Positions 1-6,007 of a DNA stretch of 6,007 nt are shown here, piece after piece; the stretch's first letter is position 1, and every line of letters begins with the position of its first letter. The DNA comes from a virus. A program made the translations under genes and the position numbers. The notes beneath the pieces were generated by a model. It was not told where the DNA came from, ran no database searches, and was given only the letters and a program-made list of their open reading frames with translations. Location: the IMG/VR virus record IMGVR_UViG_3300020030_000083, positions 1-6,007 of that record. One strand, written 5' to 3'.

Positions 1-121
1 GGAACTATAGAATTCCCTCATCTCGTCATAACCTTCAGGACCTGCAGGGCCAGCAGCTTTGCGGCTAACATACGAGGCTCCTGCAATGCCTGCGGCAGTA
101 GCAAAAGCCTTTGTAGCATCA
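1..121. repeat. Terminal direct repeat copy 1 (circular-assembly overlap)
   Basis: Base-by-base comparison shows 121/121 identity with 5887..6007. Confidence 0.97.
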
Positions 122-1224
122 TAAAACAGAGCGTTCTTGTTTTTGCGAATCGCAAACCAGTTACCGGACAGGCTCTGGCGACCTTCACTAAGCTCAAGGC
201 CACGAAGATGAGAGTAATATTCGCGACCTGTAATCTCCTCGAATTCTCCAGTGGGCTCGCCTTTCTCGTTGACCAAGGGAACCTTTACAGGGGTCTCCCA
301 GGTAACTTCAAACATGCGTTGCATATCCTTCTGCTGAATGTCAAGAACATCAGCATGAGAACGGGACTCACGTGCGGAAGCTTTAGCAGCATCGGCGACA
401 GCAATAAGATAAGCAAGGTTAGCGGCAGCAGACTGTTCGAGAAGAGGAATCTCAGCATCGTTTTCAGCACGAATACGCTTAGTGCGCTCAACCTGTTCAG
501 CATAAGCGGCCTGAATACGCTGAAAATCGTAGGTGGCGGCGAGATCTGCATACTTATTGTAAGCCTCCTGATTGATAGCCAACTCGCCATAATAACGAGC
601 GAGCGAGGACTGACTATTAACGTTAGCCTGCTTTAGTTGCTTCTCGAGCTCGATAAGGGCCTGGCCCTGCTCCCTAGTGGGCATCTTGTTACGAATGTCA
701 TCAGCTTGAGCATTATCGAGATTAGCGGCAGCCTTATTGCGTTCGATAGTCGAATTGACACCCATGGCCTCAAGAGCGACACCTGCAGCGGCAGAACCGA
801 CGCCAGGAGGCAGAGGACTGGAGAAGTCAAAAGAGCCGCCTGAAGGACCGGAAGCACCAACGGAACCAGAAGAACCGCCAGACATGGTAGCATTGACGCC
901 GACGCCTGAAGAACCTAAGACAGCAGCAGGGGTAATGCCGGCCTTCAAGTAACGATCGAAAACCTTCGTGGGGTCGTTGTAAGCATTCTCGTAATCGAAC
1001 TGTTTCTGCCAGTTAGCATAGTTGATTTCACCTTGTTTTTGCATCTGCTCCAAAGCGTACTGCTGTTGAAGCTTCATTTGCTTCTGCTGATACTTCCATT
1101 GTCTCCGAAGGGATGGCTTGAAAAGACCAGAGGCAGCCTGACCGCCAGCAGAGATAGCAGCAGCGCCAAGCATAGCACCGGTGGAAACAGGCTCGACATA
1201 ACTCTTGAAATCAATAAGTCTCAT
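1..1224 (-). CDS. VP2: VP2 minor capsid / DNA pilot protein, N-terminal 408 codons. The ORF runs off the left edge and continues at 5886 on the circle (426 aa in total)
   Basis: ATG at 1224..1222. I checked all 408 in-frame plus-strand triplets from 1 to 1224 for tta/cta/tca and found none, so the frame is open to the window edge. It translates as MRLIDFKSYVEPVSTGAMLGAAAISAGGQAASGLF...YNDPTKVFDRYLKAGITPAAVLG...; the yN-P...R...AG(L/I)(N/T)P motif and Gly/Ala-rich N-terminus are typical of non-phiX microvirus VP2 (from memory). The three track ORFs 18..203, 285..590 and 633..893 all lie in its +1 frame, as expected of shadow ORFs. It is not listed in the ORF track. Confidence 0.85.
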   Translation of the reverse strand, partial: MRLIDFKSYVEPVSTGAMLGAAAISAGGQAASGLFKPSLRRQWKYQQKQMKLQQQYALEQMQKQGEINYANWQKQFDYENAYNDPTKVFDRYLKAGITPAAVLGSSGVGVNATMSGGSSGSVGASGPSGGSFDFSSPLPPGVGSAAAGVALEAMGVNSTIERNKAAANLDNAQADDIRNKMPTREQGQALIELEKQLKQANVNSQSSLARYYGELAINQEAYNKYADLAATYDFQRIQAAYAEQVERTKRIRAENDAEIPLLEQSAAANLAYLIAVADAAKASARESRSHADVLDIQQKDMQRMFEVTWETPVKVPLVNEKGEPTGEFEEITGREYYSHLRGLELSEGRQSLSGNWFAIRKNKNALFYDATKAFATAAGIAGASYVSRKAAGPAGPEGYDEMREFYSS

Positions 1225-1225
1225 A

Positions 1226-1528
1226 CTACGGAAGCGAAAAATTGTTCGAGCGAATAATATAATCTACACGGACAGTATCGATGTGAACACCATTGCGGTA
1301 AACTTTAGCCTGTGCGGAACACGAGGCCAAGAAAAAGGCAGCTAAAGCAGCGACAATGGACGAAACAAGCGTCCAAAAGGCTTTAGATTTGTAAAAGGGT
1401 TGTTTAATATCAGACATGATAGTAAAATTTAAAGAACGATAGAAAAATGCGCGGCCTCTCCGGCAGTCGTTACCAATAACCTTCAGAAATTCACGAACTC
1501 TTCCAGAAGGGGTCCGCGCACGTAGCAT
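1226..1528 (-). CDS. Small membrane protein / putative lipoprotein. It is 100 aa from ATG 1528, while internal ATG 1417 gives a 63-aa canonical lipoprotein precursor
   Basis: It is the only open frame in this interval. TAG at 1228..1226 lies 1 nt before the VP2 ATG (TAGTATG). From M38 the sequence is MSDIKQPFYKSKAFWTLVSSIVAALAAFFLASC|SAQAKV...: a Lys-containing n-region, a ~20-aa hydrophobic core and the lipobox L-A-S-C (codons 1330..1319). The upstream 37 aa are Arg-rich (net about +7). Confidence 0.6.
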   Translation of the reverse strand: MLRARTPSGRVREFLKVIGNDCRRGRAFFYRSLNFTIMSDIKQPFYKSKAFWTLVSSIVAALAAFFLASCSAQAKVYRNGVHIDTVRVDYIIRSNNFSLP

Positions 1529-1550
1529 ATATCGTCAAGTAAAGAATGTA

Positions 1551-1847
1551 CTATTTTTCTTCAGAATTAGAAGATTTCGAAGCAGATTTCGACCTATCTA
1601 ACTCTGAATCAATAAGATCCTGGCCAACCTCGAGGCCGTCAAACTTATCCATGCGAGAAAAGGAATTGGGATCGAAATCAATCTCGGGATTAAATTTTTC
1701 GCCCTTATCAAAATCGGAGGGCTCGACCGTCACATCTGGACGACCAGGAAGAACGTCGACAGTACCAGAGCCATCAAGGACAGACATAATTCGCTGGCCG
1801 CGGGAAACATAAGCGGGAGCGTCTTCAAGTAACCAATCAAGTGCCAT
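1551..1847 (-). CDS. Hypothetical acidic protein, 98 aa (possible scaffolding-like protein)
   Basis: ATG at 1847..1845 lies 12 nt after the VP1 stop. It has 22 Asp/Glu against 11 Lys/Arg by my count (net about -11), sits between VP1 and VP2, and shows the T/C-rich third codon positions seen in the other genes. Confidence 0.6.
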   Translation of the reverse strand: MALDWLLEDAPAYVSRGQRIMSVLDGSGTVDVLPGRPDVTVEPSDFDKGEKFNPEIDFDPNSFSRMDKFDGLEVGQDLIDSELDRSKSASKSSNSEEK

Positions 1848-1859
1848 AATATCAATGAA

Positions 1860-3683
1860 TTAGCGATTAGACAAACGAGTAGCGAAGGATTTGTTAACCA
1901 AGCTCTTCTTTTGAACAGCATAGGACATATTCACGAAAAAGTTGTCCTCGGCGTTAGAAGCGAACGGGGAGTTGACTTGCGACATATCGACAAATAACAT
2001 AGGATAGTAAGGGCGAGGGTTGCCGACGGACAATCCGAAGCCGTCGAAAGATCGCTGTTGCACCCAGTAAGCATAAAGAGGCATGGCACCCGGGGACGCG
2101 TATGCCGGATTAAGCTGGCCTAAAACTTCGTCGTAAGAAGACCTAAACTCATTGAAGCAAGGCTCATGAATAGCGGCCGTGCTGGCCATGGGTATGACAG
2201 ACGCCACGCGAAAGGCGGGTACATCCTGATAACCGATATCGTTATAAATCGGGTTGAAGTAATCACTGCCTAGGTAAGAAAGGTAGTCGGGCATGATATT
2301 AGACCAGTAATAAACAGGGCGAATACTCAACATATCAATCATATAACCGGGCTCGCGGAAATAATAAGACTGTCGTCGACCCAAACGGTCATTAAATGCA
2401 ATGGCACCACCCTGTTGTCCGAGGGGGTTAGTAATACCATTGTCGCCAATCTGTCCATTAAAGTTGTTATTACCCGCTTGATTCATAACGACCTGTACAT
2501 TAATAGTCTGCGAGGCACTGAAGAGGAGTTTAGGCCTATCGACGTGCTCGATTTTCGAAGCAAAAAACGTTTCCAACCAATCACTGTATCGACTGCCTCC
2601 AGCACCAAGAAGATCCTTGTACTCCTGAAGGCGAGAAGCAATAGCCAACTGCGGAATGGTCGAGACGCCGGACATAGAAACAGCGTCGGTAGAGCCGATC
2701 GGGAGCAAGCGACTAAAACGGTCAGGATTCGAAGGTACTACAGCCATCGGGTAATATTGAATGCCTAAGGTAGAAAAGCTTACATTACCTACAACAGAGG
2801 GGGCAATAGCTGTGATATAATCAGCGGGCAGCGAACCGGTAAACTTGGTAGTAAGGTTAGCTACTGGATAGCCGTTTCCTGCCGATCCAAGAGAGCCAGA
2901 ATTTAAGATAACATCACTGTTGACAATCTGAAGAAATAAATTTCCACGATTATACGTATTGTTACTAGTAGCAACGGCGGCCGGGTAGAACTGACTCTCA
3001 AAATAAGCATCAAGGAACTCAAGATTGCCATAAGACTGCGAAAAAAAAGAACCAGAGGCCGAAAGCTTGGCAGTATACTTGGCAATTTGAGTGTCATAGC
3101 GAATAGACGAAGAACCTGGCCAAGCGTACGAAAAAACGCCCCACTGCGAATAACCATAGAAGTTGCGAACGATATCCCAGTAAGCCAAAAGAGTATCGGC
3201 ATTAGCCCAGGCACCACCCACAGCATTAGCAGGAAGCTCAACGAGAGTTGAATTAACAGCGGGGACAGTTCCGTCGCCTATGACTTTTTTATTACTCAAA
3301 CGCAACCAAGCGAAGAGACTGTTAGAGGGGGCGGTCGTATGATCACCAATCAGGGAGCCAGTATCAATAGTCGTAGCTATCCAATTGAGGCTCAAATTGT
3401 TCATATCAAACTTACTGCTATTCGTCCGCAACTCCGGATGATACAGCTGAAGCGGCACCCAAAAACGATGAAGTCGAATGGTGTAGGGATTAAATGACGG
3501 AACAGCGAGCGGATTGCTGCGAACATCAATACCCTGTTCAATAGACACACGGTCACGGGCGTTAATAAAATCAATTCGCACTGGATACAAAATACCCGGC
3601 GTACACGTAAAGGCCTTACTCTCGGGAACATCGTAACGAGAGTAACCATTTACTGCATGAGAGATGAAAGGTTGTTTTCCCAT
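1860..3683 (-). CDS. VP1: VP1 major capsid protein (Microviridae F/VP1 jelly-roll family), 607 aa
   Basis: This is the longest ORF, with ATG at 3683..3681 and TAA at 1862..1860. The N-terminal FTCTPGILYPVRIDFINARDRV ... RLHRFWVPLQLY fits the conserved G-x-L-x-P ... (F/W)VPxxL pattern of microvirus capsid proteins (from memory of gokushovirus VP1). It starts 3 nt after the VP4 stop. Confidence 0.93.
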   Translation of the reverse strand: MGKQPFISHAVNGYSRYDVPESKAFTCTPGILYPVRIDFINARDRVSIEQGIDVRSNPLAVPSFNPYTIRLHRFWVPLQLYHPELRTNSSKFDMNNLSLNWIATTIDTGSLIGDHTTAPSNSLFAWLRLSNKKVIGDGTVPAVNSTLVELPANAVGGAWANADTLLAYWDIVRNFYGYSQWGVFSYAWPGSSSIRYDTQIAKYTAKLSASGSFFSQSYGNLEFLDAYFESQFYPAAVATSNNTYNRGNLFLQIVNSDVILNSGSLGSAGNGYPVANLTTKFTGSLPADYITAIAPSVVGNVSFSTLGIQYYPMAVVPSNPDRFSRLLPIGSTDAVSMSGVSTIPQLAIASRLQEYKDLLGAGGSRYSDWLETFFASKIEHVDRPKLLFSASQTINVQVVMNQAGNNNFNGQIGDNGITNPLGQQGGAIAFNDRLGRRQSYYFREPGYMIDMLSIRPVYYWSNIMPDYLSYLGSDYFNPIYNDIGYQDVPAFRVASVIPMASTAAIHEPCFNEFRSSYDEVLGQLNPAYASPGAMPLYAYWVQQRSFDGFGLSVGNPRPYYPMLFVDMSQVNSPFASNAEDNFFVNMSYAVQKKSLVNKSFATRLSNR

Positions 3684-3686
3684 AAA

Positions 3687-4757
3687 TTAAATGTTTAGTT
3701 GAAGTTTATAGTGCTCTCTCCAAAACTGAAGAATGTCCAAATCTAGCCAAGTAGGGGGGTCGAAATCGGGCATCCTCCGAGAGGAGGCGGAAAAACGCAT
3801 CATTTGCTTTTGCTCCCACGTATACGTCTCTCTACGGGATACGGCGGAATTGAGGCCGAACCGCTCAACACACAAAGACACAATACGCTTAACCAAAGGA
3901 GACTTGCTAAAACGTGCATAAGCATCAGCAGCAGCAATCGAACGTGAAACTTCGTCTTCCTGTTTAAGGTATTTAAGATAGTATCGAGGAATCGAGTAGT
4001 TGAAATTGATACGCTTCGAAAAATCGTAATAAGACCACGACGAAGTACGAGTAGAAGGGCGAGGCATGTAACCAAGAAAATCACCAACGCCAGCAGATAC
4101 GAATTTTCGCGTATAACGGCGATGTTGGAGGAGGCAAGATAGAGGTGTAAGTTTTCCATCTACGGTAACATATTTATTCGAAATTTCTTCGGGGTTAAAT
4201 TGAATTTGTTTAGTAACATACTTTACGCAATAGCGAGCGCGTTTATGAGTGGCTTTCGCGAGCCACACAAAACCAAGGTCGCGGACAGCCGCCCGAATCT
4301 CGTTATACAGACAGTTGGTGCCGAATAGAAAACCATGGAAATGTAGACGAGGCTCCGAGCCTATTTCAGGGTGAGTGCCAAATTCTTGAAAAAACGCGTG
4401 CTTGAAAGAGTGGCCGAGCGTATGGCGAACTCGCTCGTTCCATCGCCGGATAAACTTAGAGGGGTCCTGCAACGCTTCGTCGTAATACTTAGGGGCTATA
4501 GTTATTGTAATAAAAATAGCCTGCAGCGACTCGGCCTTGCAACGGGCGAGCTCGCGCTCGAGCCTGACAAACCAATCATTGCGTTGACGACGCAAACAAT
4601 CTTCGCACTTGCCACACGGAACGAGCAGCCACTGGCGGGCGATATCCCAGGGGCGAAGGGCTAAAGCAGACTTAGCAACGTCGGAGCCATCACGACAAGG
4701 GTTCTTCTTGTCGAAATAGCGGCGATTGCGTATCCATATAGGCGAAGAGCAGGGCAT
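3687..4757 (-). CDS. VP4: VP4 replication initiation protein (HUH rolling-circle endonuclease), 356 aa from the first ATG
   Basis: HUH motifs are present: motif 1 AIFITITIAPKY, motif 2 RLHFHGFLF (H-x-H) and motif 3 ARYCVKYVTKQ (Y-xxx-Y-xx-K, two catalytic Tyr). The Cys cluster VPCGKCEDCLRRQRNDW and an N-terminus MPCSSPIWIRN are typical of VP4. The track start at 4778 is a TTG. The first ATG (4757..4755) overlaps the ORF66 stop as TGATG. Confidence 0.93.
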   Translation of the reverse strand: MPCSSPIWIRNRRYFDKKNPCRDGSDVAKSALALRPWDIARQWLLVPCGKCEDCLRRQRNDWFVRLERELARCKAESLQAIFITITIAPKYYDEALQDPSKFIRRWNERVRHTLGHSFKHAFFQEFGTHPEIGSEPRLHFHGFLFGTNCLYNEIRAAVRDLGFVWLAKATHKRARYCVKYVTKQIQFNPEEISNKYVTVDGKLTPLSCLLQHRRYTRKFVSAGVGDFLGYMPRPSTRTSSWSYYDFSKRINFNYSIPRYYLKYLKQEDEVSRSIAAADAYARFSKSPLVKRIVSLCVERFGLNSAVSRRETYTWEQKQMMRFSASSRRMPDFDPPTWLDLDILQFWREHYKLQLNI

Positions 4758-4957
4758 CAGAATAAGCTTTGAAGACAATCAAATTTGACATTAGGGTGAT
4801 CAAGACGACAGCGAGCAAGATAGTCATTTGCGGAAACCTTGTCGGCAAACCAAGCGATAATGACTCGCTTTCTACCTCTGTATGCGCCAATAGAATAGCG
4901 ACAGGAAACGTTATTGACAGTAGGGCAAAAAAAAGGGCGAAAATCAAAGCTATCCAT
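4757..4957 (-). CDS. Hypothetical small protein, 66 aa, mildly basic with 4 Cys, translationally coupled to VP4
   Basis: ATG at 4957..4955. The TGA stop (4759..4757) shares its A with the VP4 ATG. Third codon positions are strongly T/C-biased like the confirmed genes. Cys lie at 11, 19, 50 and 61. I recognise no family. Confidence 0.55.
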   Translation of the reverse strand: MDSFDFRPFFCPTVNNVSCRYSIGAYRGRKRVIIAWFADKVSANDYLARCRLDHPNVKFDCLQSLF

Positions 4958-4985
4958 AAAAAAAGTATTTACGGGTTAAAAGGAA

Positions 4986-5050
4986 GAACCACCAGGGGAG
5001 TACCTTACCGCTTCGCGGTGGCCACAACCTTCGGTTGTCCCCTGGGGTTC
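4986..5050 (-). other. 65-nt Y-shaped (three-way junction) secondary-structure element. It is a candidate complementary-strand origin on the viral ssDNA and/or a transcription terminator/attenuator
   Basis: The outer stem pairs 4986-4990/5046-5050 and 4992-4998/5039-5045 (12 bp, one bulged A4991). Hairpin 1 is 5007-5011/5015-5019 and hairpin 2 is 5024-5029/5033-5038. On the viral (minus) strand both are capped by GAA triloops closed by C:G. Hairpin 1 reads GCGAAGC (complement of 5010..5016) and hairpin 2 reads CCGAAGG (complement of 5028..5034). The element lies in the largest intergenic gap and is followed on the minus strand by TTCCTTTTAA. Confidence 0.6.
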
Positions 5051-5069
5051 AAGTAATTAAAGAACTCTT

Positions 5070-5084
5070 CCGCCAAGAGGGCGG
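5070..5084 (-). terminator. Small GC-rich hairpin 9 nt after the ORF107 stop (weak terminator candidate)
   Basis: The minus strand reads CCGCC-CTCTT-GGCGG (5-bp stem, 5-nt loop), then AAGAG TTCTTTAATT. The loop CTCTT can alternatively pair with the following AAGAG (5065..5069), so two mutually exclusive hairpins are possible. There is no classic U-tract directly abutting the stem. Confidence 0.25.
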
Positions 5085-5093
5085 GTCACCACC

Positions 5094-5417
5094 TTAGTTC
5101 CCCGACTCTTCTTTTTTCGTCGTGCTTTCATCGTAGTTGAGATCAAAATCAAACATGAGAACCATCGTATTATCAAAAAACTCGACACCAAAGCCAGAAA
5201 AACCTCCGCAAGCAGCAACAAGGTTTGCTATTTCCGAGTGATTGACATAAAGAGAATCGCTGATGTCCGAACTCTCCAAGAAGCGAGCAATAGGAGTTTT
5301 CGCGAAAGCGCCAAGGGGAAGCGGGTCAAACTGGCCATCTTTTAAACGGCCTATCTGGACGAGGTCAATCTTAAGAGCCGGACTAACCCGCCGAATAACA
5401 ACATGAATCTGTGTCAT
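5094..5417 (-). CDS. Hypothetical protein, 107 aa, acidic C-terminal tail
   Basis: ATG at 5417..5415 lies 11 nt after the ORF106 stop, and TAA is at 5096..5094. Codons are T-ending-rich like the confirmed genes. I recognise no family. Confidence 0.6.
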   Translation of the reverse strand: MTQIHVVIRRVSPALKIDLVQIGRLKDGQFDPLPLGAFAKTPIARFLESSDISDSLYVNHSEIANLVAACGGFSGFGVEFFDNTMVLMFDFDLNYDESTTKKEESGN

Positions 5418-5428
5418 AATAACGTGAT

Positions 5429-5749
5429 TTAAAGTTTTTCTATAAATTCAGAGCAAAAACGTTTCCAAGCAGCGGACTGATCGTTCCAAAAGTTAGGGCC
5501 TTCAGGCGTCTCAGTGAACAGAAACGCAGTGGTGACGAGGTGGCTCGGCTTGAAGCCGAAACCGTGAAGAGAGTGTCGAATGTGAGAACGCAGCCGATCG
5601 CGAAAACTCTTGTAGGGTGCGAAAGCGCGCTCGTAATTCGCCTCAAATGCGGAAAATATTCCTCGACGAACGAGCCACTCGGTGAATGCGTACTCTACAA
5701 CGTCAATCATTAAATCATTAATGCGGGAATTTTTGGTTAACTTTTTCAT
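5429..5749 (-). CDS. Hypothetical protein, 106 aa, first gene after the candidate promoter
   Basis: ATG at 5749..5747 and TAA at 5431..5429. It is on the same strand as all other genes. The track ORF 5440..5646 lies in its +1 frame, as shadow ORFs do. I recognise no family. Confidence 0.6.
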   Translation of the reverse strand: MKKLTKNSRINDLMIDVVEYAFTEWLVRRGIFSAFEANYERAFAPYKSFRDRLRSHIRHSLHGFGFKPSHLVTTAFLFTETPEGPNFWNDQSAAWKRFCSEFIEKL

Positions 5750-5775
5750 AACGATATGGTTATTGGTTTACAACG

Positions 5776-5806
5776 CAAAAATATGGCAAAAAAGGATAAC
5801 AGCAAA
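5776..5806 (-). promoter_or_regulatory. Candidate Bacteroides-type promoter (-33 TTTG / -7 TAnnTTTG)
   Basis: The minus strand reads TTTG (5806..5803), a 19-nt spacer (5802..5784), then TATTTTTG (5783..5776). This fits the Bacteroides consensus TTTG-N19-21-TAnnTTTG as I recall it. It lies in the 80-nt gap between the VP2 stop and the ORF106 ATG, 26 nt upstream of that ATG. It is the only complete bipartite match I found on this strand, and it is flanked by phased T-tracts. Confidence 0.5.
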
Positions 5807-5829
5807 GTTCAAAAAGTCGAAAGAAGTGT

Positions 5830-6007
5830 TCATTGTCTCTTAAAATAACTACGACGAGTGTGGGTCGCACCAATTTGATCGCCATCGGAACTATAGAATT
5901 CCCTCATCTCGTCATAACCTTCAGGACCTGCAGGGCCAGCAGCTTTGCGGCTAACATACGAGGCTCCTGCAATGCCTGCGGCAGTAGCAAAAGCCTTTGT
6001 AGCATCA
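5830..6007 (-). CDS. VP2: VP2 C-terminal end. 5887..6007 duplicates 1..121; 5830..5886 holds the last 18 codons plus the stop
   Basis: The same frame continues from position 1 (= 5887) into 5886..5833, giving DGDQIGATHTRRSYFKRQ, then TGA at 5832..5830. Confidence 0.85.
   Translation of the reverse strand, partial: DATKAFATAAGIAGASYVSRKAAGPAGPEGYDEMREFYSSDGDQIGATHTRRSYFKRQ
5887..6007. repeat. Terminal direct repeat copy 2 (circular-assembly overlap)
   Basis: Identical to 1..121. The window ends inside the duplicated segment. Confidence 0.97.

Follow-up and report, generated by a model that had tools for sequence, protein, structure and literature searches.

A small predicted lipoprotein family of animal-gut microviruses and its possible role in phage release

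Genome Organization

The window analyzed in this work, that is, the whole stretch of 6,007 nt covering positions 1 to 6,007 of IMGVR_UViG_3300020030_000083, begins and ends with an exact terminal repeat (1-121 = 5887-6007) and therefore represents one complete circular genome of 5886 nt. All its genes are carried on the minus strand (Table 1), including the DNA pilot protein VP2, which has 426 aa when read around the circle and matches phrog_8689 ("pilot protein for DNA ejection"). The closest GenBank records are unclassified Microviridae retrieved from faeces of pig, civet, musk deer, rodent, lemur, and tortoise. Shine-Dalgarno motifs were found upstream of none of the window genes and the upstream regions of all of them are AT-rich, a combination that fits Bacteroidota. 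No lysis enzyme is recognizable in the genome, and Pfam, PHROG, and further family searches detected no peptidase or lysozyme domain in any of the window proteins.

Directly before VP2 there is a minus-strand ORF of 100 aa (1226-1528) with an internal ATG at 1417, just as an earlier examination of the letters (the sequence-only reading) had described. Its stop codon is followed after 1 nt by the VP2 start codon (1222-1224), which also agrees with that reading, and the arrangement TAG/TAA-T-ATG recurs in all 8 commonest stop contexts, covering 60 of 83 related genomes.

Table 1. Features of the window genome, with the evidence for each.
Feature	Position	Strand	Evidence or match
VP4/Rep	3687-4778	minus	PF23343, phrog_942
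Candidate 119-aa ORF overprinted in VP4, other frame	3800-4159	minus	open in relatives, VP4 entropy drop
VP1	1860-3683	minus	PF02305, phrog_514
Acidic 98-aa ORF	1551-1847	minus	
Structured non-coding element, four helices, 22 pairs, then T-run	1447-1521	minus	pair counts, RNAalifold
63-residue (predicted) prolipoprotein gene	1226-1417 (ATG 1415-1417, stop TAG 1226-1228)	minus	codon periodicity, intact in relatives
Predicted signal peptide, residues 1-32: n-region MSDIKQPFYKSK and roughly 20-residue h-region	1322-1417	minus	AlphaFold2, conservation
Lipobox L-A-S-C	1319-1330 (Cys33 codon 1319-1321)	minus	invariant Cys, PROSITE-type rule
Predicted mature 31-residue peptide, amphipathic beta-hairpin with conserved turn G-V-H-I-D	1229-1321	minus	AlphaFold2
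VP2 (DNA pilot protein)	1-1224, across the circular junction to about 5830	minus	translation and PHROG match
ORFs of 106 and 107 aa		minus	

A 63-Codon Gene Behind a Structured Element

Besides the window itself, the set of 83 distinct related genomes across which the ORF was compared comprised 80 IMG/VR loci and two GenBank records; it was fetched through the lipoprotein and lies within the clade of roughly 5.9-kb genomes. The 63 codons that follow ATG 1417 (192 nt, translated as MSDIKQPFYKSKAFWTLVSSIVAALAAFFLASC followed by SAQAKVYRNGVHIDTVRVDYIIRSNNFSLP) keep their start codon in 83/83 genomes and the full 63 aa in 82/83. Codon-position entropies are 0.26/0.14/1.07, and the codon differences from the window amount to 1842 synonymous vs 659 non-synonymous. 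It is evident that the 63-codon ORF is a real coding gene under purifying selection on the protein. A total of 417 homologous protein clusters were found. The more distant homologues begin at the equivalent of ATG 1417, and for 53 clusters formed at 50% identity the N-terminus of the representative aligns with about residue 38-46 of the query. ORFs of roughly 195 aa in distant relatives were considered as the normal length, but their middle is unconserved while an overlapping ORF in another frame is conserved, and short forms occur in the window clade and in the relatives L084, L086, and L087, so that a long product is at best putative.

The 37 codons between the upstream ATG (1528) and ATG 1417 are of another nature. 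The sequence-only reading had proposed that both starts are used, giving a 100-aa N-in membrane-anchored form and a 63-aa lipoprotein with two different topologies. The 100-codon frame is indeed open in the window and in 66/83 relatives, and gene callers give 100 aa. However, the extension (1418-1528) shows flat, nearly invariant entropies with no codon periodicity (0.22/0.23/0.27 in the 83 genomes), its differences from the window are more often non-synonymous (385) than synonymous (182), and in 17/83 genomes the upstream ATG is out of frame through +1/-1 indels or separated by an in-frame stop, while the 63-aa ORF is full in 16 of these 17. More distant ORF calls translate these nucleotides in different frames (e.g., "SALFSIVL" in P0124 and P0132), and in MG945151 the upstream ORF ends at a stop of its own.

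What is conserved in this region is a fold. Within a conserved block that extends from about 1420 to 1535, the element at 1447-1521 has 99% of its cells paired; both partners have changed in 8 pairs, and compensatory cells number 86. These values were not attained in any of 500 shuffles, and sliding the partners left no more than 6 compensatory cells; the RNAalifold structure agrees with the explicit pair count. The viral/mRNA strand tolerates G-U pairs. Behind the outer GC stem come ATTTTTCT and a T-rich tract, itself invariant, which runs into the ATG. A search of Rfam gave no match for the element, and both a scan for sigma-70 promoters and simple terminators and a search for TAnnTTTG stayed at chance level. 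The 37-codon Arg-rich extension is thus the translation of a GC-rich structured non-coding element, either RNA or ssDNA, which leaves the two-start, two-topology idea without support. With no periodicity, broken frames, and compensatory pairing, the 100-aa form was rejected and the two-start model can be considered extremely improbable. The start at 1528 and the Arg-rich extension not being borne out, the true feature is 1226-1417 rather than 1226-1528, and the annotation is corrected here from the 100 aa called in databases to a real product of 63 aa.

Architecture of the Predicted Prolipoprotein

The product is very probably a prolipoprotein, as judged from its residues and those of its homologues, and a predicted substrate of signal peptidase II. 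The lipobox was tested with our own implementation of a PROSITE PS51257-type rule. The short form passes with its Cys at residue 33. Of the 61 Met-starts in the six frames of the whole genome that are followed by 40 codons or more, it is the sole passer, whereas the long form, with the Cys at residue 70, fails. The rule is passed by 119/120 close and 32/42 diverse homologues, the latter forming an alignment (A1) that reaches down to about 32% identity. The Cys is present in 119/120 of the close homologues and invariant in the 42 diverse ones, so that the canonical L-A-S-C lipobox claimed in the sequence-only reading was confirmed. In the same 42 sequences position -1 is Ser (32), Gly (7), or Ala (3), position -2 is mostly Thr, Ser, Ala, or Val, and position -3 is Thr, Leu, Cys, Val, Ala, Phe, or Met; the strict rule fails in 10/42, and the Dulem-type branch has Glu at -2. 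Two further caveats apply to a lipoprotein identity: the mature part has basic residues (Lys, Arg) at +6 and +9, and the h-region ahead of Cys33 has 20 residues, long by the standards of signal peptidase II substrates.

The AlphaFold2 model (mean pLDDT 77.5) predicts a helix over residues 12-32 (block pLDDT 91-92) and strands at 33-42 and 48-57, with no C-terminal TMD. Read from the sequence, the predicted hairpin would be amphipathic, with A35, A37, V39, V49, V51, Y53, and I55 on one face and S34, Q36, K38, Y40, N42, T48, R50, D52, I54, and R56 on the other. In Bacteroidota the surface export of lipoproteins is linked to an acidic motif near the Cys. Asp or Glu at +2 to +6 is present in just 3/42 members, which argues against surface exposure.

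An Unannotated Protein Family of Gut Microviruses

Pfam, PHROGs, NCBIfam, PADLOC, and a PDB profile search returned no significant family for the lipoprotein. The window protein had no match in Pfam at E <= 0.1 or in PHROGs at E <= 0.01, the 42 members gave only scattered weak matches to unannotated PHROG families, and the weak NCBIfam/Pfam matches cover just the lipoprotein signal regions of unrelated families. In the Foldseek search of BFVD the sole meaningful match was an uncharacterized Microviridae protein of 185 aa, a homologue. No paper tying microviruses to a lipobox or lipoprotein was found in the literature. The protein is, on these sequence grounds, a member of an undescribed and unannotated family of predicted small microvirus lipoproteins. 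All 34 phage records that carry the gene (34/34) are microviruses, in which it is unannotated or "hypothetical". A scan of 185,579 species genomes with a narrower alignment (A2) matched only three microvirus prophages, all of them in Alistipes. The family occurs only in animal-gut microviruses and its cellular copies only as Alistipes prophages. One of these belongs to Alistipes montrealensis kh20, a named and presumably cultured strain, so that with a gene of only 192 nt the question of its function becomes directly testable.

The position of the gene varies along the family. Placement before VP2, which the sequence-only reading had stressed, holds in the window clade and in Poophage, where the gene is directly before VP2, but is not a family trait. 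The gene was found in the cluster of small genes between VP2 and VP4 (the cluster upstream of VP4) in L083, L084, L091, and L092, next to VP2 just across the circular junction in L085, and as the first gene, at the left end, in the Alistipes montrealensis prophage.

At least 90% conservation in A1 was seen for K12, F14, W15, A24, F29, G43, H45, and D47. Mean pairwise identity among the 42 diverse sequences is 0.69 over residues 11-29 vs 0.36 in the mature part, and within the hairpin it is 0.24 in strand 1, 0.40 in strand 2, and 0.68 in the turn; positions 40 and 42 are highly variable among close relatives. Similarly, second-codon-position entropy in the window clade is 0.066 in the signal peptide vs 0.211 in the mature part, with third positions equally free, indicating a constraint on the protein and not on the DNA. 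Between the window and the distant relatives L083-L087 the core is 56-74% identical, compared with 21-29% for VP1 and VP4, so that the family defined here is more conserved than capsid and Rep across distant gut microviruses, which points to a conserved host target. Third codon positions are only 44% identical between the window and either L083 or L085, and the transfer is not a very recent one. The conservation across lineages is due either to horizontal exchange at an earlier date or to very strong constraint.

The two halves of the protein behave as modules. Dulem virus 225 and MG945151 have the same signal peptide (SKKFWTLV...FFLESC) joined to an unrelated mature part, while the Alistipes prophages L086 and L087, together with P0154 and P0158, have another signal peptide (WLKTLPxWxRI...) and the same mature hairpin. 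The Cys junction survives every module combination, as expected of a true lipoprotein. These data bear also on the reading of the product as an uncleaved bitopic membrane protein (N-in, C-out) acting via its transmembrane helix, either as an inhibitor of a membrane step of wall synthesis, like phiX174 E, or as a holin-like pore former, with the Cys serving elsewhere, e.g., in a disulfide-linked dimer. The 20-residue h-region would be long enough to span the membrane and exceeds the rest of the protein in conservation, and the mature part can be replaced by unrelated sequence, as can the C-terminal domain of phiX174 E. Three of the 42 members weakly match a holin PHROG, although the best E value (0.003) is not significant after multiple testing. 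However, a position -1 limited to Ser, Gly, or Ala before an invariant Cys marks cleavage by signal peptidase II and would have no role in a plain anchor, and a second, unrelated type of signal peptide carries the same Cys junction and hairpin, so the sequence of the helix is not indispensable. Both observations make an uncleaved protein less likely, and we consider it improbable.

Possible Roles in Release or Exclusion

The only microvirus with a known lysis mechanism is phiX174, and M15 peptidases have been proposed for some others (Roux 2012). Occasional peptidase genes are mentioned by Kirchberger (2022), where overprinted genes are explicitly omitted. The family described here provides a candidate for how gut microviruses break out of, or shield, their Bacteroidota hosts, with a clear biochemical prediction (lipidation at one Cys) and a short list of candidate roles. 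The function that we favor, with considerable reservation and by analogy, is that of an envelope-damaging release factor akin to the small lysis lipoproteins of colicin plasmids (BRPs). Superinfection exclusion is a close rival, and the computed data do not separate the two; lysis and exclusion had both been suggested in the sequence-only reading, and both are plausible.

The closest functional analogues, which the sequence-only reading had left aside, are the colicin/cloacin lysis proteins (bacteriocin release proteins, BRP/Kil/Cel). Their precursors have 47 aa, of which 19 aa form the signal peptide and about 28 aa the mature lipopeptide; overexpression is lethal, outer-membrane phospholipase A is activated, and the gene is placed behind a terminator hairpin (PMC2896534). 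The titles of references 47 and 48 in the same source describe the BRP signal peptide itself as lethal or toxic. The protein studied here resembles them in being a very small (predicted) lipoprotein, with a 63-aa precursor and a 31-aa mature part, in having its signal peptide, itself active in BRPs, as the most conserved region, and in the location of the gene directly downstream of a terminator-type hairpin. There are also differences. The signal peptide is much longer here (32 aa), BRPs are encoded on plasmids of Enterobacteria and the present protein by an ssDNA phage of Bacteroidota, and outer-membrane phospholipase A, the effector of BRPs, is not known to take part here. Similarity to the Pfam family Lysis_col was not detectable, with no Pfam match for the window protein (E <= 0.1) and none to Lysis_col among the 42 members (E <= 0.05).

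In the predicted prolipoprotein, whatever its function, the basic n-region would hold the N-terminus in the cytoplasm while the 20-residue hydrophobic helix enters the Sec pathway, after which Cys33 of L-A-S-C would receive diacylglycerol and signal peptidase II would cut before it. The gene lies directly behind the element with its terminator-like structure, and its translation is probably coupled to that of VP2, from which we infer that expression would accompany that of the other genes but be attenuated. Under the release mechanism that we propose, the lipopeptide and the membrane-retained signal peptide could then permeabilize the envelope and kill upon accumulation, as in BRPs. Such a role would account for both the strong conservation of the signal peptide and the absence of a muralytic enzyme. 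In favor of release are the higher conservation of the h-region compared to the mature part, at the level of identity and of entropy, and the lack of peptidase or lysozyme domains in the window proteins. Against it, the family is found also at prophage ends, a position typical of lysogenic-conversion or exclusion genes, its conservation across distant lineages fits exclusion equally well, and a two-TMD ORF overprinted in VP4 (see below) is an equally good or better candidate for lysis. As a whole, a real 63-codon gene encoding a lipoprotein that acts as a BRP-like release factor appears as the best explanation, and we put it forward tentatively. Should the protein indeed kill Bacteroidota through the envelope, it would also be a "protein antibiotic" lead of a new type against a major phylum of the gut.

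The alternative is a lipoprotein for superinfection exclusion or receptor masking, comparable to Llp of T5, Cor of phi80 and N15, or the Gram-positive Ltp, which blocks DNA entry. The lipid-anchored hairpin would bind the host receptor or the conduit of the incoming pilot protein from the periplasmic side, infected or lysogenic cells would be protected, and progeny would not be wasted on debris. Several observations are consistent with it. Temperate relatives carry the gene. In the Alistipes prophages it comes first, on the left, and is preceded by an AT-rich region with a TAnnTTTG motif (TACATTTG) about 38 nt upstream of the ATG. The gene adjoins VP2 in both arrangements, directly upstream in the window clade and across the junction in L085, and is common to distant microvirus lineages of one host group. 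The mature part has been exchanged or has diverged behind an unchanged targeting part, and positions 40 and 42 of the hairpin are variable; both would fit an arms race at a binding surface. On the other hand, no similarity was detected to PHROG or Pfam families annotated as exclusion, the conservation of the signal peptide is unexpected if the mature part alone matters, and retention in 83/83 genomes, a set fetched through the lipoprotein, is unusual for an accessory gene. We regard exclusion as somewhat unlikely, though nearly as probable as release.

As to the individual systems, Llp of T5 and Cor of phi80, N15, and T1 are also small phage-encoded lipoproteins on the periplasmic side. Their genes adjoin a host-recognition or entry gene, and the gene studied here adjoins VP2. 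However, those phages are dsDNA tailed phages of Enterobacteria, the mature domains are larger (about 60 aa for Llp), and no sequence or family match to Llp or Cor was found in PHROG or Pfam. With the o-spanins of the Rz1 type, which act in the last step of lysis, the resemblance is that of small phage outer-membrane lipoproteins. Neither a partner i-spanin nor an endolysin/holin cassette was found in the genome, though, and the mature part is not proline-rich, has no periplasmic Cys, and with 31 residues could not bridge the periplasm. There was likewise no C-terminal TMD, endolysin domain, or significant PHROG match that would identify a spanin, the single match to an Rz-like PHROG (1/42 members, E 0.05) being at chance level.

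The likeness to phiX174 E is that of a small membrane-targeted microvirus protein whose N-terminal segment is hydrophobic and conserved and whose C-terminal part can be replaced. E, however, is overprinted in gene D, has no lipobox, and adopts an N-out topology, opposite to the one predicted here; proteins of its type inhibit MraY through the N-terminal TMD, and no signal peptide is cleaved. The lipoprotein gene is free-standing with normal third-position variation, and its product has a conserved lipobox behind a basic n-region. In the window genome an overprinted arrangement like that of E is found in another ORF, the one inside VP4.

Overprinted and Other Candidate Lysis ORFs

All alternative frames of the minus strand were scanned for ORFs that stay open in relatives. 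The ORF at 3800-4159 has two strongly hydrophobic segments and a basic C-end, and is intact at 116-119 aa in 46/56 loci, including L088 and L089, whose product is about 56% identical to that of the window (about 67% for VP4). Precisely over 4157-3798 the third-position entropy of VP4 is lowered, from 1.1-1.36 to 0.32-0.67, and it rises again afterwards. The ORF carries the signature of a functional overprinted gene, and its predicted product would be an E-like candidate for lysis. Given a conserved hydrophobic ORF inside VP4, a lysis role cannot be assigned to the lipoprotein by elimination. One might even imagine the two acting together, with the lipoprotein as the first single-gene release factor of lipoprotein type in an ssDNA phage, BRP-like in that the signal peptide forms part of the lethal activity, exchanged among distant Alistipes/Bacteroidales microviruses, held at low expression by the terminator-like element, and perhaps working with the membrane protein overprinted in VP4. 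This combined scenario is speculative and, in our opinion, rather unlikely.

Other hydrophobic ORFs were considered and discarded. The 85-aa ORF with two TMDs at 4690-4947 owes its periodicity to a 66-aa ORF (4757-4957). A 54-aa ORF at 5057-5221, both hydrophobic and basic, was considered as an E-like lysis gene, but stops interrupt its hydrophobic part in many relatives, and the periodicity there is that of the overlapping 107-aa gene; the hydrophobic ORF in the alternative frame at 5132-5221 was accordingly rejected as non-coding. Within 5057-5221 the only coding portion is a basic, J-like peptide of 24 aa that starts at ATG 5131.

Structured element and the lipoprotein gene product

The stretch analyzed has identical ends, an exact terminal redundancy of 121 nt (1–121 = 5887–6007), which shows it to be a complete genome of 5886 nt in circularly permuted form. 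Upstream of the lipoprotein gene we have found a structured intergenic element, placed between a 98-aa ORF and the lipoprotein ATG and followed by a T-run, in which four helices are supported by strong covariation (86 compensatory cells, with none of 500 shuffles matching the observed values). The same element is carried by Dulem virus 225, MG945151, and Dipodfec virus 653, and a search of Rfam with it returned no family. It could act as a terminator or attenuator, or serve the ssDNA as an origin, whether for the complementary strand or for replication.

In the public gene calls (entries P0001–P0120, homologs of the lipoprotein ORF) the members of this family are almost all annotated as 100 aa, because the callers choose the longest ORF, and this extends across the conserved structured element. 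The actual product of the gene is 63 aa; the Arg-rich extension that the sequence-only reading had given to a second, longer form is this element translated.

Features of the genome and of related loci (L083, distant relative; L084 and L085, prophages)
Feature	Position	Strand	Basis
24-residue basic peptide gene	5057–5131	−	ATG kept in relatives; codon entropies
66-aa Cys-containing ORF, MDSFDFRPFFCPTV...	4757–4957	−	Coding periodicity
119-aa ORF, other frame inside VP4 (Rep gene)	3800–4159	−	Alternative-frame conservation; VP4 third-position entropy
Structured intergenic element	1447–1521; conserved block ~1420–1535	−	Near-invariance; covariation
~180–220-aa ORF beginning with the lipoprotein module	L083 1512–2114; L085 6001–6609; proteins P0125–P0167		
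Microvirus prophage, GC-rich host contig, adjoining Rce1-like gene	L084 1–2000		
Microvirus prophage in Alistipes montrealensis kh20	L085 1–5900		

Overlapping ORF inside VP4

The VP4 gene probably contains a real overlapping gene for a membrane protein, to judge from the conservation of the 119-aa ORF embedded in it, which is intact at 116–119 aa in 46 of 56 loci, distant relatives among them. The third-position entropy of VP4 is 0.32–0.67 across this ORF versus 1.1–1.36 upstream, and the drop in synonymous-site variation coincides exactly with it. The predicted protein has a basic C-terminal end and two very hydrophobic segments, and would be a candidate lysis or K-like protein. Hydrophobic ORFs in alternative frames are also present in VP4 of the distant loci L083–L085.

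Small genes upstream of VP4 and long ORFs of distant relatives

The small basic peptide gene, which overlaps a 107-aa ORF at the 3′ end of the latter, encodes MKARRKKKSRGTKVVTRPLGGRVL; its ATG is found in 53/53 relatives and the codon entropies are 0.13/0.13/0.72. We take this peptide, with its basic run and hydrophobic "..LGG..L" end, to resemble the J DNA-packaging protein of phiX174 and G4. Between this J-like gene and VP4 sits the Cys-containing ORF, with coding periodicity across 43 genomes, unlike an overlapping 85-aa ORF with two TMDs, which was rejected.

The same J-like tail (RRGGRRGKPRPK.K.IPLGGSHL) forms the C-terminus of the long ORFs seen in many distant relatives, where the lipoprotein module is the N-terminus. 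These ORFs read across a further conserved gene, in a frame other than its own; their middle part is unconserved and the overlapping 133–135-aa ORF is conserved.

In both prophages the first phage gene past the junction is the lipoprotein gene, and direct reading of the Alistipes sequence places a TAnnTTTG motif (TACATTTG) ~38 nt upstream of its ATG.
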